Of a stretch of DNA of 64,000 nt, positions 6,867 to 43,591 are shown in pieces (position 1 is the stretch's first letter; every line of letters begins with the position of its first letter). A model generated the notes under the pieces. It ran no database searches and was not told the origin of the DNA. It was given only the letters and a program-made list of their open reading frames with translations. The DNA is from an uncultured Bacteroidaceae bacterium (lineage in GTDB: Bacteria > Bacteroidota > Bacteroidia > Bacteroidales > SM23-62). The stretch covers positions 774,250 to 838,249 of the forward strand of contig CAVZPP010000003.1 in NCBI GenBank assembly GCA_963777115.1, in the 5' to 3' direction. A program made the translations under genes and the position numbers.

Positions 6867-8489
6867 CTATTGGATCAAAATTCTTGAGCCTTCCGGAAGA
6901 TCAACTTTTACTCCGTTTACCCTTGTTTCAATATCGTTCTTAAATGTAATGGTCAGAAGCAGATTGCCCAGTTCATCATATTTTTTCCAGGTTTTTTCCC
7001 TGATTCCCATTACATAAAACCGTTCTTCTTTAAGATTCCCGTTTTCATAATAAAGTCTTTGTCTTCCATCCGGATTTCCCTGTATATAAAATCCCTCGAA
7101 TTTCAGTGTGCTTTCATTGTAGAAATATCTCCACTTTCCGTCTCGCAAGCCAGTGATGTATTTTCCAACTTCAACATGGTTTCCCACCCGGTAGTACCAT
7201 TCTCCTTCCTTTTCTCCCTCAATATAATCTCCCTCGGTAATTATTAATCCCTCCGGGGAATATTCAATCAGGCGGCCATCCTCTCTTCCGTTGAAAAAAT
7301 CTTCTTCACGAAGGGTACTGCCATCTTCATAATACCAGAGCCAAAGTCCGTGAGGCCGGCCAAGATTGTAGGTGCCCGTTTGTTCTATTTTTCCATTCCT
7401 TCTATAAAAGGTCCACTTGCCTGTTCGATAATTATCTTTATACTGTCCACTTGATTTCGTTTCTCCACCAGGGTAAAAATCTTTCCATATTCCCTGTTTT
7501 TTTCCTTCCTCATCCACAACTCCCTCAGCCGAAATTTTTCCATTGTTTTCATAGGTCTGTGATTGGATCACCCTTCCTTCTGAATTATAAGATCGGTGTA
7601 TACCAATGGGGGTGTTCTGTCTGTATGGACCACTTTTTACAAGGCGATTCTGCTCGTCATATTCATTGCGTATTTCAATGCTCTCCTCCTCGTCAATATC
7701 TTCTGCAACTACTTGTCCACCAATATACTTAAGAACCATTACCAGGTTACCTTTTTCATTAAACTCCTTGTAAAGTCCGTCCAGCATTCCATCCCTGTAA
7801 TCTTCTTCTTTTCTTACCTTTCCGTCAGGGTAAAATTCTTTCCATATTCCCTGTTTGTTTCCTTTATCATCGATCCTGTTTATTTCTTCTTTGTCCGTTA
7901 GATATCCGTTATGGTAATAAATAAGTGAGCGTACCACCCCATCCTGGCCATATTCTTTACTGAGGCCCTGGCGATTTCCGTTTACATATGAAGTTTCATT
8001 TTTTAGGCTTCCGTCTTCGTAATAATAGTATGAAATGCCTTCTCTTTTATCATTAACATACAGTTCCCGGGATTTAATCATCGCCTTATCCCTTCCTTCT
8101 TTCTGATTATCATAGCTATAAACTACATGGTAACCGTTCTTTTTTCCAAACATGTAGCTTATTTGCTGTAAAGTGTCTCCCTTATTATTATAAAAGGTCC
8201 ATATACTGTCCAATAAAAAATTAGTTCTTTTACCTTCTGATTTTTTTATTCCGGTAGCATAATAGGTGGTCCAATAACCATCTGGTTTTCCTTCCCTCAT
8301 TTCACCGACGCTTGACAGCTGGCCGCTTGGATAATAAAATTCTACATGTCCATTGTTGGGTATATCTTTCTGTGCATAGACCTGTATACCCATAACAGAA
8401 ACTAACAACAATAAAACCAACTTCCCGGCTATTCTATTCAATCTTTTCTTTTTTAGTAGATTAAATTCCAAGTTTTTTAGAGATTTCAA
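6867..8489 (-). CDS. secreted MORN-variant (YwqK-like) repeat protein
   Basis: 540 aa. A signal peptide is followed by many ~23-aa repeats of the form G-x-x-x-G-x-W-x-x-(Y/F)Y-x-x-G (e.g. GKPDGYWTTYYATG, GKWTFYRRNG, GEWYYRVGN). The 5' end overlaps the nadA stop by 29 nt. Confidence 0.8.
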   Translation of the reverse strand: MKSLKNLEFNLLKKKRLNRIAGKLVLLLLVSVMGIQVYAQKDIPNNGHVEFYYPSGQLSSVGEMREGKPDGYWTTYYATGIKKSEGKRTNFLLDSIWTFYNNKGDTLQQISYMFGKKNGYHVVYSYDNQKEGRDKAMIKSRELYVNDKREGISYYYYEDGSLKNETSYVNGNRQGLSKEYGQDGVVRSLIYYHNGYLTDKEEINRIDDKGNKQGIWKEFYPDGKVRKEEDYRDGMLDGLYKEFNEKGNLVMVLKYIGGQVVAEDIDEEESIEIRNEYDEQNRLVKSGPYRQNTPIGIHRSYNSEGRVIQSQTYENNGKISAEGVVDEEGKKQGIWKDFYPGGETKSSGQYKDNYRTGKWTFYRRNGKIEQTGTYNLGRPHGLWLWYYEDGSTLREEDFFNGREDGRLIEYSPEGLIITEGDYIEGEKEGEWYYRVGNHVEVGKYITGLRDGKWRYFYNESTLKFEGFYIQGNPDGRQRLYYENGNLKEERFYVMGIREKTWKKYDELGNLLLTITFKNDIETRVNGVKVDLPEGSRILIQ

Positions 8490-9459: not shown

Positions 9460-9952
9460 TATATTATTATATAGTAATATTTAAAATATATATGATAATG
9501 GTAATAGGCTGTTAATATTGTTACTAACTCCTATAATTTAAATAAATAAAATTTTACAAAATTTCATCTACAGGAAATTAACAACTTATTATCCGGCTAA
9601 ATAATTTTATGATAGATAATTATGACAAAATTAACAGTTGTTTATTAATTTATTAAAAATAACTCTTAATAATCGAGTAGCGTAATAATTGTTAATAGCC
9701 TGTTTGGCTTTTGATGGAAAAATGCTCGCTTAAAATTTTGAATTGATAATCATTTGAACAAATACAGGTAAATTTACATTTTGCAAGCATTTTTATTAAA
9801 ATAAATCACGATTAATTAACAAGAATTAAACAGGCAAACCTATTATATTGTTAGTATGCATATTAAATAGAGGATAATGGAAGTTTAATACTTTTAGGTA
9901 TTAAATAAATAATTTGTATAAATTTGGAAACAAATCAACAAATAACCGAATA

Positions 9953-10384
9953 ATGCTTTCCAACACCTCAAAGTACGCCATCAGGGCTGTTATTTATCTA
10001 GCCTTATATGCCGGAGAAGAAAAAAAGATTGGAATCAAACAAATATCTAAAGAACTGGATATTCCAACCCCTTTTCTTGGTAAAATATTACAAACCCTTG
10101 CAAAACATAAATTATTGTCGTCTACAAAAGGTCCTCACGGAGGTTTTGGTTTAGGCAAACCAGCTGAAGGGATAGCTCTTATTGAAATTGTTGACATAAT
10201 TGACGGACAGGATCTTTTTAAAAAATGCATGATCAGACTGGAAGACTGTAATGAAAAAGAACCTTGCTCAGCACATAATAAATACGGCGAAATACGACAA
10301 AGCCTGCTTACACTATTTCAGAAAGAAAAAATTTCTGATTTTGTAGATGAAATCAAGGAAGGAAACAATAAGATTAATCTTTAA
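9953..10384 (+). CDS. Rrf2 family transcriptional regulator
   Basis: The N-terminus MLSNTSKYAIRAVIYLA... is the Rrf2 HTH signature. ATG at 9953 is preferred over the TTG at 9914 in the ORF track. Confidence 0.85.
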   Translation: MLSNTSKYAIRAVIYLALYAGEEKKIGIKQISKELDIPTPFLGKILQTLAKHKLLSSTKGPHGGFGLGKPAEGIALIEIVDIIDGQDLFKKCMIRLEDCNEKEPCSAHNKYGEIRQSLLTLFQKEKISDFVDEIKEGNNKINL

Positions 10385-10754
10385 CTACTGATTTTTCCTT
10401 TATCCGGGACAGTATTAACACTGTCCCAATAGAAATTAAAATCCCAAGGAGATCGAATAATACATCTTTGAGTTCAGCTTTTCTGCCCAGACCTGTTATT
10501 TCTTGCAGGATCTCAATCAATATTCCAAAGAAAAAGCTGAGCATAATTGCCACAAAGTAAAATCGTTTAACCGGTTTTTTGGAAGCATTGCTTTTTTGCT
10601 GATTACGGACAAGAAACCAGGCCAAAACCGCGAACATGAATATATGGACAGCTTCGGAAAGGCAGGGTATGGATGGGGCATTAGACAAATTATTAGAAGG
10701 CATAAGAAAAACAATAACCATAAGGATCGCCCAAAATGCTGATTTCCAGAACAT
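10374..10754 (-). CDS. VanZ-like membrane protein
   Basis: Small 4-TM protein with a VanZ-type pattern (H-x3-F-x2-L in TM2; EILQ...GR.AELKDVLFDLLG). The start is uncertain: ATG at 10754 or at 10802. Confidence 0.6.
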   Translation of the reverse strand: MFWKSAFWAILMVIVFLMPSNNLSNAPSIPCLSEAVHIFMFAVLAWFLVRNQQKSNASKKPVKRFYFVAIMLSFFFGILIEILQEITGLGRKAELKDVLFDLLGILISIGTVLILSRIKEKSVVKD

Positions 10755-10861
10755 TATAAATCTATTATTAAAAAGCTTGTTGTACCTGCACATAAAAAAC
10801 ACTAAATTACCTATTCGTGGGAACGATGGGACAAAAATAGCTGCTTTATTGATATTATTTT

Positions 10862-13800
10862 ATGAGAAAGAGAATGAATGTAGCTGAAATGATGAACAAT
10901 CTCAACCGGGAAAAAATCCTTACCTGGTTTGATCTTGGTTTATACCTTGACCGGCTAAGAGAAAACAATCCTGTTCCCGGTAATGAATTTCATGGAAGTT
11001 ATGAAGATTTCAAAGGATATTTGAACAAACGTGCAATGGCCTTTGCCACGTTTCATTATTCAGTTGATGGCGTCACCATTGAAGTTGAGAAATACTCAAA
11101 AATATTCAAAAGAAGACTTCCAGGAATAGATATTCATTTTGTTTCAGGCGAATTTCTTCCTGAGGCAGAAAACATATTACAGGCCGGGGACAGGAAGTTT
11201 GAAATGAAGGAAATGAAGGGATTTGATGATTGGGATCTGTATGAAGATTTTTATATAACCAAACTTAAAAGAGGCAGCGCGGAATATAATTCACTGATAC
11301 TGAGATTATGGAAACAGGTAAAAAGGATATGTAAAAAACTTGGTGACTACGTTGAGAGAAATGATATCAGCCTGCTTTATGTACTTAATGTTTGTTCCAA
11401 TCCTGGAAATGTGGCATATGGCCTAGCTATTGTACTAATCTCCGAGTACCTTGGTATTCCTGTAATTAACAATAATCATGACTTTTATTGGGAGGGAGGA
11501 AACCGGCCGGTAGATATTAAGTATAATGGGGCTCCGAAGGGTCCGAGGGACTTCTTTTTTAAAAATTCAGACATTGGTGAGTTTTTCTCCATAATTGAGA
11601 TGTTATACCCATGGGAATCAAGAACATGGATAAACGTAAACATAAATACAGGACAATCCGATCACATCATTAAACAAAATGGCCATAATCCGGCAAATGT
11701 ATGCGAAATAGGTACTGCGGTTGATACAGATGTTTACACCAACATTACAAAGCGGGAAAAAATCAATGCATATATTCAATTTGAGAAAATATTAAGCAGG
11801 TATAAAAACACACTGGTTGGATATTCAGTAAAGGATGTTATTGAAAATAAGCTGGTTGATAAAAAGAATCCACGCCCGATTTTAATAGGAAACAAAACCA
11901 GGGTCCTCAATTATTATTCTGCAGAAAACATAATTTTTTTGCAACCCACCAGGATAATTTCCAGAAAACGAATAGAGGTAGGCTTCAACCTAATTCAAAT
12001 GTTTTTTACGAACCCTATATTCATTGATCATCTGGAGAAAAACGAAAATTTAAAATTGTCTTTACTCATTACAGGTCCCATTGCAAAAGGGCAATATGAA
12101 TATTTTGAAAGACTGATAAATCGATTTGATGAATTAGTCGATAAGCTAAACCCCGAATACAGGGACCGGATCTTTCTTGCTTGTATTTTCAGCGAACTGG
12201 ACAGAAAATCATTTAAGAAACGATTTGAAAATCCTGTTGGTATACCCGAGCTGTATAATATAGCCTCTCTCGTTCTTTTGCCAAGTAAAACGGAGGGCAG
12301 GGGACTACCAATAATTGAAGCAACGGCCTGTGGAACGCCAATCATTTGCCGGAGATATGAACCGATGAATGTTTATAAAGAGGTTATAGGGGAGCATCTT
12401 GATGAGCAGGACCGACTTAAGGTGACAGAATTTGACGGAAAAAACATTAAAACTAAACACATCCGAGAAATTATCGACAGAATCTTTTTTCCAAATAAAT
12501 ATGTTGACGAAATTCTGCACAACCACAAGGCAGTTTTGAAAAGGTATAGCCTGTATTCCCTTGATGGCAATTTGTCACAGATTTGTCACCAGCTTTATTC
12601 ACAGCTTCTTCCGAACCGTGACTCAATGAATCTAACCAAAGAAGCAATGGATGAGTTTGATAAATTAGTAAATTTTCAAAATGAAGATCTGGATTCCCTG
12701 ATAAAAACAAAAAACAGAAATTATTTGCCCGGTTATGGCAAACTTTCCTACATGTTGCTGATCAAATCTCTGATTGATCCAAGTTTTTTCAGAGTTGAAC
12801 AACAGATATTCAAAGGAATGGCACTAAATTTTGCCAGGGAAATTATCACAAGAGATCCTCATCATAAAAACATTCCAGAAAAGAAAACAACGGCTTTTTA
12901 TAATGCTGTAGATAATATATTTCACTATCGGAACGGAGAAACCACCATCAGGCACGACCATTCCATGTCCTACAGGCACCGGAACAAAAACTATTATCCC
13001 TACCAGGATTATACTATCCAGGAACTTACAGGAGTGATCAACCTGTTGTATAATAAAATATTAAAACCCCGCATAAGTATACATATTGAAGAAAGTCCGC
13101 ATTTTTTCACGGACTGGAACCTAGCGCTTTCCCAGCTAACTGCATCCCCAATACTGGCCATTGACGATCGCTATAAGCTGATTGAGAAAATGCATCAAAA
13201 TCTGCCAATAGCATATTTCCCGGGTGCATATCTGAAATATGAACTTGAATTTTTTGCCCTGCAATCGATTCGCTCAAGGTTGGGATTAAAGATAGAAGAA
13301 GAATTAACTGAAAAAGCTCTTGAGGAAGCCGGAGTCAAAGTTGCTCCTGTTTTTGTGTTTGCTCAAAACAGACCCATTGTCCGGCAACTGAATAAGGTGG
13401 AAATTGTAGACTACATACAAAAAGGCAGAAATGACGAATTAAAACTGCTCTATACCAAACGGATCATCAGGATTGTGTCGACAGAACAGCTAAGTGTAGG
13501 GATTCATTTTCCGCAACTTGGGGCCAAAGCATTAAAAACATTGCTCAGAATACAGAAACAGGGAGGTTACATTATCAGCAATCGAAGGAATGCCACTGTC
13601 ATGACAGACATTATTTCAATAGACAGATTTCATATAGGCAAGGTATCAAGCATGATTACCGCCAGCATTCTTGGAATTCCCATAGATAGTGGATTTATTC
13701 AGTTTGTACCAGCAGGAGTTCGCGCGACACTTAACTTTCCGACACCCACCCAGACAGCCAGGGAGCTTAGCGAAACACTGAAAAGCGACCTTTACAAAAG

Positions 13801-15037
13801 TCTTTGCAAACGCATGGGTGAAAAGAAAGTGCTGGAGGAAATACAGAAAGATGCCGAAGCAGGAGGATCCCCGGTCAAACAGGTCCTTGAAAAACTCGGT
13901 GGAGAAGGAGATGCTCTAACAGGGATCGAATCAAGGAATGTAAGCGGGGTTTACAGGGATGAGGAACCGTGGAGCGGAGTAATTGCAAACACGGGGAACG
14001 CCGGACAAGGAAAAACATGGAAGTTTGTCGCTGTTTCCGCAAACGGTAAGCCCAAGAAAGTAACAACATTTTGTAATGAATTCGAAAATGACTATAAAAT
14101 ATCACCCGCGATTGCATGGAATGGGGGATATATCCTGAATCCCGAACTGGTGGGTAAACTGGGTCTGCCCGAAACATATATAGGTTCACCCCTGGGGATG
14201 ATTATTTCAGACCACAGGGTGTTGTCTCCTCCGCTATTTAATAAAGCGGCAATGCTCATAAATTCTGACGGATCAATAAAAATTCAAAGGGTAAATAGTT
14301 CCGGAGGTTTTGAGATTTTTGACAAGGATTTCCGGATTCCTTTTCCTCCGGAATCTTATAACAATTTGAATACTGATATTCCCCTGGCATACTTCGATCT
14401 ATTAGGTGATTTGAAAGAAGTTCCAACAAAGGGAAGGGTAATTGTTAGATTGGCCGGAGCAAGAGTAAAAGAGGTGATAGACGATGTTGAGAATGTCAGG
14501 GTGATTCCTGTCGGGTTGACATTGTCTTTCAGGAGAGATATGTTTCCAGAGGGACTGATCATCCCCGGAAGGGATTTGGGATTTACTCTCAATGGACTGG
14601 AGGATATCGAACATGCCGTAGAGGCGGGGCCCATGTTGCTATCCGGTGGAAAACTAAACATTAATATGAAAACCGAGGGCTGGAAAACCAGAAACTCAAT
14701 AATTACCCAGGCTGCGAGACTTGATTATACCGACATGAGAGGTCCCAAGATCGCCGTTGGAATCAACCGTGATGGAAATCTTTCGGTATTAACCATTAAC
14801 GGTAGATTGAGAGAATCCGTTGGCGCAACCCACCAGGATATGGCAGAGATTTTACAAAAATTTGAAATGGTTGATGCTATGGGTTTTGACCCAGGGGGAA
14901 GTAGCACGCTTGTGGTCGGGGGGGAAACTAAAAACATTTCGCCCTATAATCATGAATACGAGAAAAATATATATTCCCTTCCTCCGGAACCAAGGGCCGT
15001 TTCCAATGCTGTGATTGGATACCTTGCTAAAAGATAA
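10862..15037 (+). CDS. 1391-aa fusion protein: N-terminal GT4-like glycosyltransferase, unknown middle region, C-terminal phosphodiester-glycosidase (NAGPA/DUF2233-like) domain
   Basis: Uninterrupted ORF with no signal peptide. The N-terminal third has a retaining-GT-B/GT4 signature (LLPSKTEGRGLPIIEATACGTPII) and is paralogous to the 429-aa GT at 16167-17456. The C-terminal ~300 aa carry phosphodiester-glycosidase-like motifs (RGPKIAVGINRDGNLSVLTINGR, AMGFDPGGSSTLVV). Confidence 0.75.
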   Translation: MRKRMNVAEMMNNLNREKILTWFDLGLYLDRLRENNPVPGNEFHGSYEDFKGYLNKRAMAFATFHYSVDGVTIEVEKYSKIFKRRLPGIDIHFVSGEFLPEAENILQAGDRKFEMKEMKGFDDWDLYEDFYITKLKRGSAEYNSLILRLWKQVKRICKKLGDYVERNDISLLYVLNVCSNPGNVAYGLAIVLISEYLGIPVINNNHDFYWEGGNRPVDIKYNGAPKGPRDFFFKNSDIGEFFSIIEMLYPWESRTWINVNINTGQSDHIIKQNGHNPANVCEIGTAVDTDVYTNITKREKINAYIQFEKILSRYKNTLVGYSVKDVIENKLVDKKNPRPILIGNKTRVLNYYSAENIIFLQPTRIISRKRIEVGFNLIQMFFTNPIFIDHLEKNENLKLSLLITGPIAKGQYEYFERLINRFDELVDKLNPEYRDRIFLACIFSELDRKSFKKRFENPVGIPELYNIASLVLLPSKTEGRGLPIIEATACGTPIICRRYEPMNVYKEVIGEHLDEQDRLKVTEFDGKNIKTKHIREIIDRIFFPNKYVDEILHNHKAVLKRYSLYSLDGNLSQICHQLYSQLLPNRDSMNLTKEAMDEFDKLVNFQNEDLDSLIKTKNRNYLPGYGKLSYMLLIKSLIDPSFFRVEQQIFKGMALNFAREIITRDPHHKNIPEKKTTAFYNAVDNIFHYRNGETTIRHDHSMSYRHRNKNYYPYQDYTIQELTGVINLLYNKILKPRISIHIEESPHFFTDWNLALSQLTASPILAIDDRYKLIEKMHQNLPIAYFPGAYLKYELEFFALQSIRSRLGLKIEEELTEKALEEAGVKVAPVFVFAQNRPIVRQLNKVEIVDYIQKGRNDELKLLYTKRIIRIVSTEQLSVGIHFPQLGAKALKTLLRIQKQGGYIISNRRNATVMTDIISIDRFHIGKVSSMITASILGIPIDSGFIQFVPAGVRATLNFPTPTQTARELSETLKSDLYKSLCKRMGEKKVLEEIQKDAEAGGSPVKQVLEKLGGEGDALTGIESRNVSGVYRDEEPWSGVIANTGNAGQGKTWKFVAVSANGKPKKVTTFCNEFENDYKISPAIAWNGGYILNPELVGKLGLPETYIGSPLGMIISDHRVLSPPLFNKAAMLINSDGSIKIQRVNSSGGFEIFDKDFRIPFPPESYNNLNTDIPLAYFDLLGDLKEVPTKGRVIVRLAGARVKEVIDDVENVRVIPVGLTLSFRRDMFPEGLIIPGRDLGFTLNGLEDIEHAVEAGPMLLSGGKLNINMKTEGWKTRNSIITQAARLDYTDMRGPKIAVGINRDGNLSVLTINGRLRESVGATHQDMAEILQKFEMVDAMGFDPGGSSTLVVGGETKNISPYNHEYEKNIYSLPPEPRAVSNAVIGYLAKR

Positions 15038-15041
15038 TAAT

Positions 15042-16166
15042 ATGGCAGGCCTGTATGTCCATATTCCCTTCTGCCGGGCCGCCTGTAGTTATTGTGATTT
15101 TCACTTCAGTGTTTCAATGGAAAATATTGCTCCAATGCAGGAGGCAATAAAAAAAGAAATAATCACAGAAAAGGATTTTCTTGAAGGAGAAAGCCTTGCA
15201 ACCATATACTTTGGGGGAGGAACCCCTTCAGTTCTGGCCCCTGAAGATATCGCTCTTTTGCTTGAAACAATACGGCAGAATTATTCTGTTGATATAAACC
15301 CCGAAATTACCCTCGAAGCAAATCCAGACGACCTTACTACGGATTACCTTACTGCGCTGAAAAACCATGGGATTAACAGACTTAGCATAGGGGTCCAGTC
15401 CTTTCATGATGAAGATCTCGTATTGATGAATCGAAAGCACAATTCCATGCAAGCTATCGCCTGCGTTGAATTAGCTGTAAACGCAGGAATTGACAATTTT
15501 AGCCTGGATCTAATATATGGCATGCCGGAAATGAGCAATGATAAATGGGAGAAAAACCTGGAAATAGCGATGAATTTAAATCCTCCACACCTGGCCGCCT
15601 ATCATCTTAGTTATGAACCCGGGACAGTACTGGACTATCTAAGAAAGAAAAAAAAGATAACACCTGTAAATGAGAATAAAAGCCTGGATCATTATAATAT
15701 CCTTACTGAGTTGATGGAAAACAAGGGATATGAACATTATGAAATCTCAAATTTTGCACTACCGGGAGCTATTTCAAAGCACAATTCCGCATACTGGAAA
15801 GGAGAAAAATATTTGGGTGTCGGTCCCTCTGCACATTCATATAACGGACAATCCAGGAGGTGGAACATATCCAAAAACACAAGTTACATAAGGGGTATAA
15901 TGAATGAACAAAAGGTGTATGATGAGGAAATTCTTGATGAAGTAAGCCATCTGCATGATTATCTCCTGACCTCGCTGAGAACCATGTGGGGTGCCGATTT
16001 ATTATACTTAAAGCATAAGTGGGGTGCGGAATATTATGACCATGTTTTACAAAAGGCTCAATCCTATATTCAAACTGGCAAGGTTTTAAATATTGAGGGA
16101 AAGTTAATGCTTACCAGTGAAGGAATGTTTATTGCAGACCATATTATATCGGAACTATTCCTGTGA
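15042..16166 (+). CDS. hemW: radical SAM family heme chaperone HemW / HemN-like
   Basis: GLYVHIPFCRAACSYCDF carries the CxxxCxxC radical-SAM motif, followed by a HemN-type C-terminal domain. ATG at 15042 avoids overlap with the upstream ORF. Confidence 0.85.
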   Translation: MAGLYVHIPFCRAACSYCDFHFSVSMENIAPMQEAIKKEIITEKDFLEGESLATIYFGGGTPSVLAPEDIALLLETIRQNYSVDINPEITLEANPDDLTTDYLTALKNHGINRLSIGVQSFHDEDLVLMNRKHNSMQAIACVELAVNAGIDNFSLDLIYGMPEMSNDKWEKNLEIAMNLNPPHLAAYHLSYEPGTVLDYLRKKKKITPVNENKSLDHYNILTELMENKGYEHYEISNFALPGAISKHNSAYWKGEKYLGVGPSAHSYNGQSRRWNISKNTSYIRGIMNEQKVYDEEILDEVSHLHDYLLTSLRTMWGADLLYLKHKWGAEYYDHVLQKAQSYIQTGKVLNIEGKLMLTSEGMFIADHIISELFL

Positions 16167-17456
16167 TCAGACAGAATTCAAGGCTTTTTCAATCAGCTCA
16201 TCCAGTTTTTCCTGAAGCGTATCGTAGGAGAAGAGCTTTTTACCAAGATTGAAATTATACTCTGCTGTTTCACGGTTTAATTGCTCATCATAAATAACTT
16301 TTTTCATTTCTTCCAGGGCATCCGGAGTTATTACATTGTCCTCGAGCATTACAGCACGAAAACCTTTGCTTCCAATATCCGGCCAGTAAACGGGCTTGTA
16401 ATTATTGACAAAAATCGGCCTTTTTGCAAGTACTGCTTCAACAAAGGCATTTCCAAATCCCTCATATGTGCTGAAATAAGTACATGCCCTGGCCCTTGCA
16501 TAGGCATCCGAAAGAGAATAACCACATTCCTCGTTCCCAGGGGTCTTTTTGCCCTTGTTGTGAAAACAATGATATGAAAAACGCACCCTTTCTCCCAGCT
16601 TCAGGTCATGGATATGGTGAACAAGTTCGTTATAATATTTGCTTCCCTCGTCATCGGCATAATTGCCTGTAATGATCAGCTTGATCTTTTCATCCTCAAG
16701 CTGGTGAACAAGATTTATTGCGGCTTCAATTCCCTTGCGCCTTACTACACGGGTAATCTGGAATAGCAGAATATCATCTTCTTGGTAACCGAGTACTCTA
16801 TTGATATTTTTATTGTGCTCATTCTTAACACCGTAGGGAATATCGAAATCCATAACATTGGGCACATTAACAGACTCCCTGCCGAATCGTTCTCTTAAAG
16901 TATCCTGTGCATGAGAATTAATAACTGCATGAACATTATGCAACCTCATAGGAAAATGAGATTCTACATATTCATTAATTTCATTATGAGGAGATTGATA
17001 ACGATCACCCCTTTCCCAGGCAAAGTCGTGATCATGAGTAATGGCAGGAATACCCGTTTTATTCACAGCATTTTTTATTGCCAATCCCATTTCAAGATGT
17101 GAAGGCAAGCAGGAGGCATTTTCAGATATAATCAATTCTATCTTTTTTTCCTGCATCCAGGAAAGGATCTTTTTGTAAATAATTTTACTGTAAAGATCAA
17201 TATGGTCAATCAGCTCAGAGGGATTAGTTTCCGGGTAGAAAAATGCCTTTTTCTGGCTCCAGAAACTTTCGGGTGAAAAAAATGACATTTCCGGAACAAG
17301 TGTTTCGCTGTTGCCTTCCATTGGCCTCTCCTCATATTGACCGGAAAGAATAAAAATTTCATGACCCATGCGCTGCATAACATCAATCCATTTTTCAGTT
17401 TCAAGAGCAACTCCGTCAACCCCGCCTATACGTCCGATAATAATACCAATCCTCAT
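16167..17456 (-). CDS. GT4-family glycosyltransferase (free-standing paralog of the N-terminus of the 1391-aa protein)
   Basis: 429 aa. Shared motifs with 10862-15037: GGVDGVALETEKW vs SVDGVTIEVEKY; THDHDFAWERG vs NNNHDFYWEGG; STYEGFGNAFVEAVLAKRPIF vs SKTEGRGLPIIEATACGTPII. Confidence 0.8.
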   Translation of the reverse strand: MRIGIIIGRIGGVDGVALETEKWIDVMQRMGHEIFILSGQYEERPMEGNSETLVPEMSFFSPESFWSQKKAFFYPETNPSELIDHIDLYSKIIYKKILSWMQEKKIELIISENASCLPSHLEMGLAIKNAVNKTGIPAITHDHDFAWERGDRYQSPHNEINEYVESHFPMRLHNVHAVINSHAQDTLRERFGRESVNVPNVMDFDIPYGVKNEHNKNINRVLGYQEDDILLFQITRVVRRKGIEAAINLVHQLEDEKIKLIITGNYADDEGSKYYNELVHHIHDLKLGERVRFSYHCFHNKGKKTPGNEECGYSLSDAYARARACTYFSTYEGFGNAFVEAVLAKRPIFVNNYKPVYWPDIGSKGFRAVMLEDNVITPDALEEMKKVIYDEQLNRETAEYNFNLGKKLFSYDTLQEKLDELIEKALNSV

Positions 17457-18911: not shown

Positions 18912-19337
18912 TCAGGAGGTATTCAGTTCAAAAAGATGTCCCTCAGCCATATAAAACAGGAAAACCCTGTTAAATCCAGTCCCGAAACACCAATTTATTA
19001 GCTTATTGTGAAGGTTATACCGGGGCTTAATGGTTATATCCCAAACATATAGGATCAACCAGTATTCCTGTAATCTTTTTCGTTTATATAATCCAAGTTT
19101 TTCATCTTTTGATGACAGACAAGCAGAAATATTTTCAAAAGAAAATAGATCTGAATATGGCTGGTTGAGATTCAGACGAGTAAGCTCAATACCGATTTTG
19201 TGCCTGGGACCAAGACTTAGTATGAAGTCTGGTGATTCAGATGCTTTCAACACACCTTTAGGGAAATCGGGGTACAGGTCCCGGAATAATTCCAGGATTA
19301 CAGTCTCATGTTTTTTTTTATCGTTCAAAATATCCAT
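18912..19337 (-). CDS. hypothetical protein, possible PD-(D/E)XK-like fold
   Basis: 141 aa with no recognisable family. The spacing SESPDFIL ... IGIELTRL resembles a D...(D/E)xK-type nuclease core, but the Lys position is T/R. The start overlaps the stop of the upstream J-domain gene by 13 nt. Confidence 0.45.
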   Translation of the reverse strand: MDILNDKKKHETVILELFRDLYPDFPKGVLKASESPDFILSLGPRHKIGIELTRLNLNQPYSDLFSFENISACLSSKDEKLGLYKRKRLQEYWLILYVWDITIKPRYNLHNKLINWCFGTGFNRVFLFYMAEGHLFELNTS

Positions 19338-20524
19338 CTTAATAAGGGACTGATGACTGAAAGTACAGGGAGTTCCATGTATAGCTGGTATTGTTTATAA
19401 AAGAGCTTATCAAGAGGGGGGTATTGCCGGGTAACAGGAACAAATAATTTGTCTTTGGATATGAAGCGCAGTAAGGCTTCCAGCATGGGATCGAAAAAAA
19501 GAAAAATGAAAGCATAGGATCCGAAAAATCCAATTATCAAAACCCAGACGAAGAATTTAATGAGCATACCATATGAAATAAGATAAGATACTTTTGGCCG
19601 GGTACCGCTTACCAAAAGCAATAGAGCAGAGGCAGTACCCCCAAGAATCAAACCTATGGGCAGACTAAACCGGGCAAATGATCCATAGGAGATAAAGATC
19701 AGGCTAAGCACAAGCACAATAATTTTTATAATGGATGCCATGGAGTGAATAATAAAAGCCTTACGACTCCTTGGGATCCGGATGATCTGTTGTTCCCTTC
19801 TGGATCCTGCTTGCCTTCCGTATATGGCCCCGAAGGTTTGGGTCTGCATGCTCAGGATTCGAAAAAGATGTATTTTATATGGATAAATCATAGCCTTTTG
19901 CCCCTCGCAGTAAAAACATTCAGTCTTCGTCTTTTTTGAAGATTCTTGCCAGATCTTTCCAAGATCGTACAGGTGATAATAGAAAGTATCAATCCGGAAA
20001 TAATTCTTCCAGTTATACACAATAAAAATCAATATAATCAGGGCAAAAAGCCAGAACATAACATAACCAGAAGGAACAGCAAACTCCTCGTTGATAAGAG
20101 GCAGAGCAATAAAGAATCCGATTACTGGAAAAGCAAGGACACGCATTATGTACCGGAGAATTAAAATAAGATCATGCCATCCGCTTTTTTTAAATGCTTC
20201 CTGTTCCTTCCTGAAATTCTCATATTTCATCCTGGCAAAATGTTCTGCACTTTCCTTTGCTTCTCTCCGGGCCTTTGCATACTGGGCACGCATATAGGCC
20301 GAATCGGTTCCTCTTTTACGGTGAATATTATACTCATGCAAATCCTTGTTCATCAGGATTTCATAAGCTTCAGTGATCTCAATAAACCGCAGATGTGCAT
20401 CAGGGGAACCATTAATATCAGGGTGAAATTTTTTTGCCATGTTACGATAGGCCCGTTTAATTTCCGCCTCACCTGCGTCTCTGCTGATTTCCAGGACTTT
20501 ATGATAGTCTTTATGTTTGGACAT
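19325..20524 (-). CDS. J-domain (DnaJ-like) polytopic membrane protein
   Basis: From ATG at 20524: MSKHKDYHKVLEISRDAGEAEIKRAYRNMAKKFHPDIN carries the HPD motif. About 6 TM segments follow. The ORF-track N-terminal extension to 20716 overlaps the divergent acyl-CoA ligase gene and is rejected. Confidence 0.8.
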   Translation of the reverse strand: MSKHKDYHKVLEISRDAGEAEIKRAYRNMAKKFHPDINGSPDAHLRFIEITEAYEILMNKDLHEYNIHRKRGTDSAYMRAQYAKARREAKESAEHFARMKYENFRKEQEAFKKSGWHDLILILRYIMRVLAFPVIGFFIALPLINEEFAVPSGYVMFWLFALIILIFIVYNWKNYFRIDTFYYHLYDLGKIWQESSKKTKTECFYCEGQKAMIYPYKIHLFRILSMQTQTFGAIYGRQAGSRREQQIIRIPRSRKAFIIHSMASIIKIIVLVLSLIFISYGSFARFSLPIGLILGGTASALLLLVSGTRPKVSYLISYGMLIKFFVWVLIIGFFGSYAFIFLFFDPMLEALLRFISKDKLFVPVTRQYPPLDKLFYKQYQLYMELPVLSVISPLLRWIF

Positions 20525-20596
20525 GGCAATTAAAGGTAGAAAAAATATACCCAGCTGATAAAATTCTAGTATTTTTGACCCACAACAATAAAAATT

Positions 20597-22240
20597 ATGA
20601 ATAAACAGGAAATATTGACCTTTCCTTCGATGTTCGGAAAGATTGTAGAAAAGCACGGTGATTCGAATGCTATGTCCTTTGTAGGAGAAAAACCACTGAG
20701 CTACAAGGAAGTTCAAAAACAGATCGCATCGGTTATTGCTTTACTTGAAAGTCTGGGGATACAGCCGGGAGATAAGGTGGCCATTCTGAGTACCAATATG
20801 CCCAACTGGGGAATTGCATATTTTGCAATAAGTTTTATGGGTTCTGTTGTCGTTCCTCTGCTGCCAGATTTTATGCCCGGAGAGATAGGGAACATCCTGG
20901 AACATTCAGGCAGCAAAGCAATTTTTGTGTCTTCTGGACTTCAGCAAAAGTTAAATGACATTTCTGCTGGGGAATTAAAACATAAAATCCAGATTGAGGA
21001 TTTTATGTTATTGTCTGAAGGTCCTGGTAAAACAGTATATGATGTTTCTTCCAGTCCAGTCAAAACATATGAAGTAAATGAAGAAGATCTTGCTGCAATA
21101 ATATATACTTCAGGCACAACAGGATCCTCCAAGGGAGTAATGTTGACCCATAAAAATATATGTTCAAATGTAGTAGGATGCCGGCTTCTGCATCCGGTTG
21201 GGGCAACGGACCGGTTTATTTCCATATTACCCCTTTCCCACTCGCTGGAAAATACGGTAGGTTTTGTTTTCCCTATCATGCACGGGGCATGTATTTACTA
21301 TATGCAGAAGCCACCTTCTCCTTCTGTTCTTATGCCTGCACTCAAAGAAATAAAACCCACTGTCATGTTGTCGGTTCCAATGATTATTGAGAAGATATAT
21401 TTTCAAAAAATATTGCCAACACTTCAGCAGAAAACAATCACTCGCAATCTATTGAAGGTTCCTTTCATGAGAAAGGTCCTTCACCGCGTAGCAGGAAAGA
21501 AATTAATGGACACTTTCGGTGGGGAAATTGAGTTTTTCGGCATAGGCGGGGCTAAATTAAATTCAACCGTTGAACAATTTCTCATTGAAGCAGGCTTTCC
21601 ATATGCCATTGGATACGGTTTGACAGAAACAGCGCCATTACTTGCAGGTGCAGTGCCCGGTAAAACTAAGCTAGGGTCTACGGGACTGGTCGCTGATGGA
21701 GTGGAACTTAAGATCAATGATCCTGATCCAAATACAGGGGAAGGAGAAATATGGGCAAAAGGACCGAACATTATGAAAGGATATTACCAGGAGCCGGAAC
21801 TAACAAAGGAGGTGTTAACCGAAGACGGATGGTTCCGTACCGGAGACCTTGGTATTATTGATGACAATCACATGATTTTTATTAAGGGAAGGCTGAAAAA
21901 CATGATCGTGGGATCAAGCGGTGAAAATGTATATCCCGAAGAGATAGAATTTGTAATAAATAATTTCAAACATGTTGAGGAATCACTGGTTGTCGAAAAG
22001 AAAGGAAAACTGGTTGCCCTGGTGCATGTAAACCTGGAGGAAATTGAGCAGGCCTATCAGCACCTGAAAGAAGAAGTACATAATCTCGTTGAGGAGAAAA
22101 CAGAGGAGATCCTCAAGGATGTAAAGAAATATGTGAATGAGAGAGTCAATAAATTCTCACAGATAAATTCAGTAGTTCTTCAAAGCCTCCCTTTCCAAAA
22201 GACTGCAACAAAAAAAATCAAGCGCTATCTATACAAATAA
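20597..22240 (+). CDS. long-chain fatty acid--CoA ligase (AMP-binding family)
   Basis: 547 aa with AMP-binding motifs IIYTSGTTGSSKGVMLTH, GYGLTET and FRTGDLG. Confidence 0.9.
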   Translation: MNKQEILTFPSMFGKIVEKHGDSNAMSFVGEKPLSYKEVQKQIASVIALLESLGIQPGDKVAILSTNMPNWGIAYFAISFMGSVVVPLLPDFMPGEIGNILEHSGSKAIFVSSGLQQKLNDISAGELKHKIQIEDFMLLSEGPGKTVYDVSSSPVKTYEVNEEDLAAIIYTSGTTGSSKGVMLTHKNICSNVVGCRLLHPVGATDRFISILPLSHSLENTVGFVFPIMHGACIYYMQKPPSPSVLMPALKEIKPTVMLSVPMIIEKIYFQKILPTLQQKTITRNLLKVPFMRKVLHRVAGKKLMDTFGGEIEFFGIGGAKLNSTVEQFLIEAGFPYAIGYGLTETAPLLAGAVPGKTKLGSTGLVADGVELKINDPDPNTGEGEIWAKGPNIMKGYYQEPELTKEVLTEDGWFRTGDLGIIDDNHMIFIKGRLKNMIVGSSGENVYPEEIEFVINNFKHVEESLVVEKKGKLVALVHVNLEEIEQAYQHLKEEVHNLVEEKTEEILKDVKKYVNERVNKFSQINSVVLQSLPFQKTATKKIKRYLYK

Positions 22241-43517: not shown

Positions 43518-43591
43518 GGGCCCATAGCTCAGTTGGTTAGAGCATCTGACTCATAATCAGGGGGTCGCTGGTTCGAGCCCAGCTGGGCCCA
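43518..43591 (+). tRNA. tRNA with CAU anticodon (elongator Met or lysidine-type Ile2; acceptor stem favours Ile2)
   Basis: Manual cloverleaf fold gives acceptor GGGCCCA/TGGGCCC, D arm GCTC-AGTTGGTTA-GAGC, anticodon arm TCTGA-CTCATAA-TCAGG, and T arm GCTGG-TTCGAGC-CCAGC. G1:C72 rules out an initiator. C4:G69 and C5:G68 match the known TilS determinants of E. coli tRNA-Ile2. Confidence 0.9.

Follow-up and report, generated by a model that had tools for sequence, protein, structure and literature searches.

A conserved GT4, DUF89-like and NAGPA-like fusion protein encoded upstream of hemW in an uncultured Bacteroidaceae bacterium

The giant gene and its distribution

The genome of an uncultured Bacteroidaceae bacterium of the order Bacteroidales (assembly GCA_963777115.1, contig CAVZPP010000003.1) contains a giant open reading frame (ORF) of 1391 amino acids (aa), which was analysed within a window of 64,000 nucleotides (nt; contig positions 774,250 to 838,249), with ORF coordinates taken from the ORF map and all positions counted from the window start. 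The gene product, referred to below as the giant protein, is a genuine, vertically conserved, three-domain enzyme in which a GT4 glycosyltransferase domain is followed by a domain of the DUF89/ARMT1 fold and by a C-terminal domain of the NAGPA-type phosphodiester glycosidase fold. The three folds are known and each domain is in, or derived from, a known family, but their combination was not found described in the literature. New relative to the literature found are the fusion itself, the predicted cytoplasmic location of a NAGPA fold, the DPGGS loop of this fold and a DUF89 domain devoid of the catalytic triad. Downstream follow a hemW-like gene and, on the opposite strand, a free-standing GT4 of 429 aa, and all three ORFs lie where the preliminary description of this stretch had placed them (Table 1).

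Table 1. Coordinates of the giant gene, its domains and motifs, and the two downstream genes within the window.
Feature	Position	Strand	Basis
Giant ORF, 1391 aa, GT4, DUF89-like and NAGPA-like fusion	10862..15037	+	ORF map, Pfam, database homologues
N-terminal extension, ~60 aa, without counterpart in the 429-aa paralog	10862..11041	+	
GT4 (GT-B) domain, about aa 61-575	11042..12586	+	Pfam, NCBIfam, BLASTP, Foldseek
VDGV motif of the giant GT4	11063-11074	+	
HDF motif of the giant GT4	11477-11485	+	
EX7E motif EGRGLPIIE (E478...E486), GT4 catalytic/donor-binding signature	12293..12319	+	
DUF89/ARMT1-fold domain, about aa 600-1030; helical N-subdomain and Rossmann-like alpha/beta subdomain	12659..13951	+	
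DHSMSYRHR (D699-R707), family-specific invariant acidic/basic loop	12956..12982	+	
FPGA (F786-A789), site of the Asp nucleophile and Asn metal ligand (T-D-N in DUF89 enzymes)	13217..13228	+	
NAGPA-type (PF09992) phosphodiester-glycosidase-fold domain, about aa 1040-1391 (~350 aa)	13979..15034	+	
AWNGGY motif at the start of the NAGPA-like domain (position given for WNGGY)	14117-14131	+	
NGRLRES (N1313-S1319), invariant basic motif	14798..14818	+	
DPGGS (D1343-S1347), counterpart of the NAGPA DGGGS sugar-phosphate loop	14888..14902	+	
R1378, counterpart of NAGPA Arg316; PEPRAVSNAV aligns with CPRRVSTVV	14993..14995	+	
hemW-like radical-SAM ORF, 383 aa	15015..16166	+	TIGR00539
Free-standing GT4 paralog, 429 aa	16167..17456	-	ORF map, Pfam, NCBIfam, BLASTP
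EX7E motif of the 429-aa GT4 (EGFGNAFVE, aa 332-340)	16437-16463	-	

The database copy of the giant protein (P0001) comprises 1387 aa, its start probably being the ATG at codon 5 of the ORF. The N-terminal extension harbours a strongly conserved helix motif, TWFDLGxxxD (T21-D30), and no signal peptide. A hydropathy scan over all 1391 aa revealed neither a signal peptide nor a transmembrane segment, in line with the preliminary description; the sole hydrophobic 19-mer (aa 184-202; Kyte-Doolittle value 1.91) is a core helix of the GT4 Rossmann fold and aligns with the 429-aa paralog. As both targeting signals are missing, the giant protein is predicted to be cytoplasmic. In the databases, members of the family are labelled only as 'hypothetical', 'glycosyltransferase' or 'phosphodiester glycosidase family protein'.

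A protein search retrieved 806 homologues of the giant protein, and a species scan with one genome per species found a match in 391 species genomes. Among the best 120 homologues, nearly all are 1382-1419 aa long and show the same pair of Pfam matches at identities down to 54%, and these homologues as well as the loci of the best 80 species are near-full-length except where a contig end cuts them. An exhaustive HMMER scan with residues 560-1391 equally recovered full-length relatives (~1380-1460 aa) with identity down to about 28%. The best 80 species comprise Bacteroidales/Marinilabiliales-type genomes together with metagenome-assembled genomes (MAGs) labelled Chlorobiota, and include the closed chromosome OY762280.1. 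Cultured carriers are Marinifilum fragile, other Marinifilum strains and Ancylomarina longa, while most source genomes are uncultured, many of them from marine, cold-seep or vent sediments, with non-marine samples represented too. Identity is about 55% among the listed Bacteroidales members, and relatives occur in at least four other phyla; divergent members of ~1390-1440 aa, all annotated as hypothetical, stem from Myxococcota, Oligoflexia and candidate division KSB1.

In the near-complete relatives that were examined, the fused layout of ~1390 aa is standard. A survey of fused versus split forms, as proposed with the preliminary description, yielded one seemingly split form, the 868-aa protein P0124, which is cut by a contig end. 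The concern that the giant gene is an assembly chimera, or a gene-calling artefact fusing separate genes, has practically no probability left; its unusual length is all that speaks for such an origin, which is ruled out by a distribution in which the same frame of 1380-1440 aa recurs in hundreds of independent assemblies, in isolates and in one closed chromosome. Base composition, moreover, is even over the whole gene. One distant relative is genuinely shorter: P0201 (724 aa; locus L084, 857-3031) matches only residues 826-1390 of the giant protein at 26% identity, that is, the C-terminal half of the DUF89-like domain and the NAGPA-like domain, and has neither a GT4 domain, a GT4 neighbour nor the D-x-G-G-S loop. 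It represents a different architecture on the same DUF89-like and NAGPA-like two-domain unit.

Domains of the fusion protein

The N-terminal part of the giant protein and the 429-aa protein had been described as sharing a GT4 variant, and both assignments hold. Pfam Glycos_transf_1 (PF00534) matches the giant protein with 39.1 bits (aa 391-501) and the 429-aa protein with 47.4 bits (cut-off 26.4), and the modelled N-terminal domain matches the GT-B fold. In a BLASTP alignment, residues 68-502 of the giant protein pair with 13-356 of the free-standing protein (identity 24%, E 5e-17), the quoted motifs being present in both and in register: VDGV (aa 68-71 and 13-16, respectively), HDFxWE (206-211 and 143-148) and EX7E (EGRGLPIIE at 478-486 versus EGFGNAFVE at 332-340). 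Residue conservation was counted over 157 family members (156 for the DPGGS loop). Glu is found at both EX7E positions in 155 of the 157, and no fewer than 149 members keep EX7E, R364/K369 and H206-D207. The GT4 domain appears to be an active retaining glycosyltransferase.

The best NCBIfam match of both GT4s is NF041101, the model of mannosylglucosylglycerate synthase (MggS) from Petrotoga mobilis and Thermotoga maritima, a GT4 Leloir transferase acting on GDP-mannose and glucosylglycerate. MggS is the only characterised member of the GT4 subgroup of the giant protein, and its acceptor is small and soluble. The likeness extends to solubility and the EX7E motif, and the 429-aa protein aligns with the model end to end (residues 1-421 versus 1-430 of 431; 218.2 bits, E 1.6e-64), whereas the giant protein scores 52.4 bits and possesses about 815 extra residues. 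As both scores are far below the equivalog cut-off of 640 bits, the two window GT4s are, by sequence comparison, paralogs within an MggS-like subgroup and not MggS itself. Genes of a glucosylglycerate pathway were not identified, the genome not having been searched for GpgS or GgS. The 429-aa GT4 family is well conserved (68-87% identity among the 120 matches listed) and carries generic annotations only. A defence-system role, prompted by weak Pfam 'GT4-conflict' matches, was dismissed as PADLOC gave no match.

In a Foldseek search, the model of residues 1-591 (predicted local distance difference test, pLDDT, 64.6) matched GlgM first (6tvp, E 3.5e-14) and also sucrose-phosphate synthase (SPS; 2r60, 8vrf), MshA, BshA and TreT; E-values for GlgM, SPS, MshA and BshA span 3.5e-14 to 1e-11 at probability 1.0. 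The nearest solved folds are thus soluble GT4s with small, often phosphorylated acceptors.

The middle region, about 500 aa of which had been regarded as unrecognised, turned out to be recognisable: according to the structural model, its ~430 aa adopt the DUF89/ARMT1 phosphatase fold. In an AlphaFold2 model covering residues 575-1391 (pLDDT 76.5; predicted template modelling score, pTM, 0.74), the middle domain matched PH1575 (2g8l, 6.5e-7), At2g17340 (1xfi, 3e-6) and AF1104 (2ffj, 6.5e-5), all at probability 1.0, and a profile of the middle domain also matches 2g8l (E 1.6e-4). The Pfam family PF01937 (ARMT1-like_dom) does not match the middle region of the window protein even at E<=10, but is matched by three of 17 aligned family members and reaches E 1.6e-9 and 37.8 bits (cut-off 25) in the Myxococcota relative P0181. 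The two-subdomain fold is shared with the 'damage-control' phosphatases of the DUF89/ARMT1 family, such as PH1575, At2g17340, yeast YMR027W and Schizosaccharomyces pombe Duf89/Duf8901.

In DUF89 enzymes, an Asp nucleophile, an adjacent Asn and a second Asp bind the metal, and an aspartyl-phosphate intermediate is formed (PMC9062747). The hidden Markov model alignment of the middle-domain profile to PH1575 contains no gaps, and the I-D-D motif and its spacing to the first Rossmann strand are the same in both proteins. Eighteen residues after I-D-D, however, PH1575 has T-D-N where the giant protein has P-G-A (P787-G788-A789), and the INDAT sequence with the second metal Asp aligns with PIVRQLN, the Asp being replaced within V840-Q842. 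In this alignment the giant protein thus retains none of the Asp-Asn-Asp metal/nucleophile triad, nucleophile and Asn ligand being substituted by G788 and A789. Position 788 is Gly in 146 of the 157 members and Asp in four.

On the other hand, the middle domain has an invariant set of its own, comprising DHSxxYRHR, MTD916 and R954. D699 and T718 are present in all 157 members and D916 in 155; conservation extends to the DHSxxYRHR loop and to R954. The DHSMSYRHR loop, a flexible part of the model (pLDDT <50), is a candidate phosphate- or anion-binding lid. A canonical phosphatase role is ruled out by the absent triad; the domain is probably a pseudo-phosphatase under strong constraint, and, given the lost triad, most likely serves as a binding or recognition module for a phosphorylated or anionic ligand rather than as a phosphatase. 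The Myxococcota relative P0181 (locus L081, 4849-9150; a MAG) keeps DUF89-like catalytic motifs, FCDGAGE...FD (D-G-A-G-E) and FENDIT (N-D-I-T), and passes the PF01937 threshold because of these, unlike the Bacteroidales clade. Its sequence suggests an ancestral active phosphatase domain that degenerated later.

A related arrangement is known from SPS, which consists of a GT4 and a C-terminal phosphatase-fold domain similar to sucrose-phosphate phosphatase that is inactive in many species. Both are fusions of a GT4 to a phosphatase fold that is not necessarily catalytic, the GT4 of SPS acting on a sugar-phosphate, and SPS is among the nearest folds of the giant GT4. SPS differs in that its phosphatase fold is of the haloacid dehalogenase type instead of DUF89 and that it has no NAGPA domain; a specific sequence relationship to the giant protein beyond the GT4 is not detectable.

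For the C-terminal domain, profile and fold searches agree on the NAGPA type, and a different fold can be set aside. The preliminary description was right in locating a glycosidase domain at the C-terminus; the domain extends over ~350 aa instead of being confined to the last ~150 aa. Pfam NAGPA (PF09992) matches aa 1247-1384 (E 1.6e-18, 67.9 bits; cut-off 25), and the strings DPGGSSTLVV and VGINRDGNLSVLTINGR are present. Foldseek retrieved 5h3k (5.4e-19), 6ozd (1e-13), animal NAGPA (6pk*/6u11, about 1e-10) and 3ohg (6e-9), all at probability 1.0. With NAGPA, the mannose-6-phosphate 'uncovering enzyme', and with the bacterial PF09992/DUF2233 proteins (5h3k, which is Slr0280, 6ozd and 3ohg), the giant protein shares the fold and the catalytic Asp, Ser and Arg: D1343, S1347 and R1378 align with NAGPA D286, S290 and R316. 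D1343 is conserved in 153 of the 157 members, and R1378 is Arg in 151 and Lys in three; the catalytic Asp, Ser and Arg, like many residues around them, are retained in over 95% of the members. The NAGPA-type active site therefore appears intact.

The differences are equally distinct. The giant protein is predicted to be cytoplasmic, whereas the NAGPA family is lumenal or exported; it has insertions of about 80 aa versus animal NAGPA, and it is fused to the GT4 and DUF89-like domains. Instead of the DGGGS loop of NAGPA, the giant protein has DPGGS, as do 149 of the 156 members. Of 22 other NAGPA-domain matches scanned, six carry DGGGS, several of these with hydrophobic, signal-like N-termini. 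In the NAGPA family, the DGGGS loop has been described as strictly invariant, with loop mutations abolishing activity, D286 and R316 as essential, and the backbone amide of G287 as contacting the N-acetyl group of N-acetylglucosamine (GlcNAc) (PMC13474241). As Pro removes the amide that reads the N-acetyl group, the DPGGS sequence suggests that the sugar is not GlcNAc or is bound in another way, or possibly that catalysis has been lost. A second distinctive element is NGRLRES, which by its position would line up with the phosphate-contacting segment of NAGPA around human T260; it includes two extra invariant arginines, R1315 and R1317, and both R1315 and S1319 are found in 157 of 157 members.

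These findings also bear on the possibility that the GT4 alone is catalytic, the DUF89-like and NAGPA-like domains being degenerate, regulatory or substrate-binding appendages. The lost DUF89 triad and the presence of DPGGS in place of a loop reported to be invariant and intolerant of mutation are consistent with it, but the NAGPA catalytic Asp, Ser and Arg are more than 95% conserved across five phyla. A binding role would conserve these residues too; the possibility is given a low probability.

Gene neighbourhood

The hemW-like ORF matches the HemW model TIGR00539 with 275.8 bits (cut-off 205.4). The mechanically called ORF starts at a TTG, which gives it a 23-nt overlap with the giant gene. 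The likely true start is instead an ATG at 15042, located 5 nt past the stop of the giant gene, where the conserved N-terminus of HemW (MAGLYVHIPFC) begins. This short distance suggests that the giant gene and hemW are probably co-transcribed.

Synteny was assessed by tblastn of the window proteins against the loci of the best 80 of the 391 species. A block consisting of a MORN-repeat protein, nadA, an Rrf2-family regulator, the giant gene, hemW, the GT4 and a coiled-coil protein recurs across Bacteroidales. HemW was detected in 63 of the 80 loci, mostly directly downstream of the giant gene, and in roughly 45 an ortholog of the 429-aa GT4, with 63-84% identity, is encoded no more than 6 kb from the giant gene. 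The GT4 is convergent with hemW and hence on a separate transcript. In Marinifilum and Ancylomarina the giant gene is present with no 429-aa GT4 nearby, and in Myxococcota and Oligoflexia it has neither GT4 nor hemW nearby. In locus L029, hemW and the GT4 are separated by a two-component insertion (13271-16158) made up of an 842-aa multi-PAS histidine kinase and a 120-aa response regulator, and a comparable gap of 3-4 kb is seen at this position in about a dozen further loci.

The preliminary description had pointed to the two GT4 genes flanking hemW. Since the GT4 is convergent, the flanking housekeeping genes are equally syntenic and distant phyla have neither neighbour, the pairing of the giant gene and the GT4 reflects inherited synteny and paralogy within Bacteroidales, not an operon or a demonstrated functional coupling. 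One possible function is a compatible-solute pathway, in which the giant protein would make and process a phosphorylated glycoside and the 429-aa GT4 add a second sugar, with an osmolyte or thermolyte of sediment Bacteroidales as the product. Synthase/phosphatase pairs make glycoside solutes, and a GT4 joined to a phosphatase fold mirrors such pairs; both GT4s have MggS as their best model, the 429-aa protein over its full length, the two genes lie close together in more than half of the loci, and many of the genomes were obtained from marine, cold-seep or vent sediments. The MGG pathway has been described (PMC3736172). The MggS scores are, however, far below the cut-off, the phosphatase triad is absent, the GT4 is convergent within a generally syntenic block and has no copy close to the giant gene in Marinifilum, Ancylomarina, Myxococcota and Oligoflexia, and the family is found in non-marine samples too, which makes this pathway unlikely.

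A further possibility is a cytoplasmic step in envelope glycan synthesis, be it of cell wall, lipopolysaccharide or exopolysaccharide. A Joint Genome Institute (JGI) label, 'glycosyltransferase involved in cell wall biosynthesis', points in this direction, and many GT4s and most bacterial NAGPA-domain proteins are linked to surface glycans. The giant protein has no membrane anchor, though, no polysaccharide cluster, flippase or polymerase is found near the gene in any examined locus, and the nearest GT4 relatives use soluble acceptors; such a step is therefore considered very unlikely.

Several further genes of the window deserve mention. Upstream of the giant gene and on the same strand, an Rrf2-family regulator with a three-Cys cluster (CMIRLEDCNEKEPC) is encoded at 9914-10384 (+), an arrangement present in 48 of the 80 loci (for example L003, 7061-7483); the giant gene and hemW may be under redox or Fe-S-linked control. 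A small VanZ-like membrane protein (10374-10802, -) between the two is detectable in only seven of the 80 loci. A 540-aa protein (6867-8489, -) with a signal-like N-terminus consists almost entirely of MORN-type repeats (YxxGxxxGxW...) and shares synteny with nadA and the giant gene at 43 of the 80 loci. Farther downstream, a 463-aa ORF (19325-20716, -) encodes a J-domain followed by several hydrophobic segments; its start was called at a TTG, and its extended 5' end overlaps a divergent AMP-ligase-like ORF (20597-22240, +) by about 120 nt, the real start probably being the internal MSKHKDYHKVLEI... at the J-domain. At gathering threshold, Rfam matches nothing in the 64 kb apart from a single tRNA gene (43518-43591, +).

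Possible function and significance

The preliminary description had suggested that one polypeptide both makes and trims a sugar-phosphate compound. The DUF89 fold adds a third, phosphate-related module to this idea and removes a canonical phosphatase step from it. The best, though tentative, explanation, to which a probability of roughly 0.4 is assigned, is that the giant protein is a soluble 'make-and-cleave' enzyme of sugar-phosphate metabolism composed of a GT4, a holding module and a NAGPA-type cleavage domain. It would act on a soluble sugar-phosphate metabolite: the GT4 domain would build a glycoside from a nucleoside diphosphate sugar on a phosphorylated or acidic acceptor, the pseudo-DUF89 domain would recognise and hold a phosphate-bearing ligand, and the NAGPA-like domain might cleave, or transfer from, a sugar-1-phosphate linkage in the product of the GT4 or in a precursor. 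Substrates, the order of the steps and a cooperation with the 429-aa GT4 in this pathway are inferred only.

Several observations weigh against a make-and-cleave enzyme. The Pro in DPGGS could mean that the NAGPA-like domain is non-catalytic, as the DGGGS loop is described as strictly invariant and its mutation abolishes NAGPA activity. The ranking of the nearest GT4 structures, resting on a low-confidence N-terminal model, is soft and nearly flat. Nucleotide-sugar, phosphatase or transporter genes do not adjoin the giant gene in the loci examined, and in Myxococcota and Oligoflexia the giant gene is surrounded only by housekeeping genes of unrelated function, which give no clue to a pathway. 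No family member has been characterised, and the fusion is not described in the literature on bacterial phosphodiester glycosidases.

A variant with different chemistry in the last step is offered by analogy to the GlgM/GlgE alpha-glucan pathway, in which a GT4 maltose-1-phosphate synthase is combined with a maltosyltransferase that uses the sugar-1-phosphate as donor. The substrates from which GlgM forms maltose-1-phosphate are ADP-glucose and glucose-1-phosphate. A pathway in which a sugar-1-phosphate is first made and its C1-O-P bond subsequently broken would suit the pair of GT4 and NAGPA fold: the GT4 would make a glycosyl-1-phosphate, and the NAGPA-fold domain would use it as donor with phosphate leaving, as a transglycosylase building an oligosaccharide, a polysaccharide or a solute and not as a hydrolase. 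The closest structural match of the GT4 model is GlgM, the invariant R1315 and R1317 would be positioned beside the phosphate site, and the DUF89-like domain could hold the sugar-phosphate. NAGPA itself breaks the C1-O-P glycosidic bond with retention, and its mechanism may resemble the internal nucleophilic substitution (SNi-like) of retaining glycosyltransferases (PMC13474241). Against this analogy, GlgE belongs to GH13 and is unrelated to the NAGPA fold, there is no evidence of glucan products for the giant protein, the Foldseek ranking among GT4s is nearly flat on a low-confidence model, transferase activity is not known for any PF09992 member, and glucan-metabolism genes are not adjacent in the loci examined. 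A GlgM/GlgE-like enzyme is hence quite unlikely, and just as doubtful is the specific proposal that the cytoplasmic NAGPA fold works as a phosphate-leaving-group glycosyl transferase or phosphorylase on a sugar-1-phosphate supplied by the GT4 of its own polypeptide, the phosphosugar being held by the pseudo-DUF89 domain. If true, it would constitute a previously unrecognised GlgM/GlgE-like route to a glycan or solute in hundreds of anaerobic Bacteroidota species, and scattered also in Myxococcota, Bdellovibrionota (Oligoflexia), KSB1 and Chlorobiota.

Returning to the preferred make-and-cleave enzyme and the family it belongs to, the giant protein would provide the first cytoplasmic context for the uncovering-enzyme fold, with DPGGS as a natural variant of a loop thought to be invariant, and it is a clear case of a DUF89 domain that is strongly constrained yet without a metal site. 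The cultured hosts among the Marinifilaceae, Marinifilum and Ancylomarina, make the giant protein experimentally tractable. Its substrate could reveal a phosphosugar metabolite, solute or glycan in sediment Bacteroidota and inform the debated mechanism of NAGPA.

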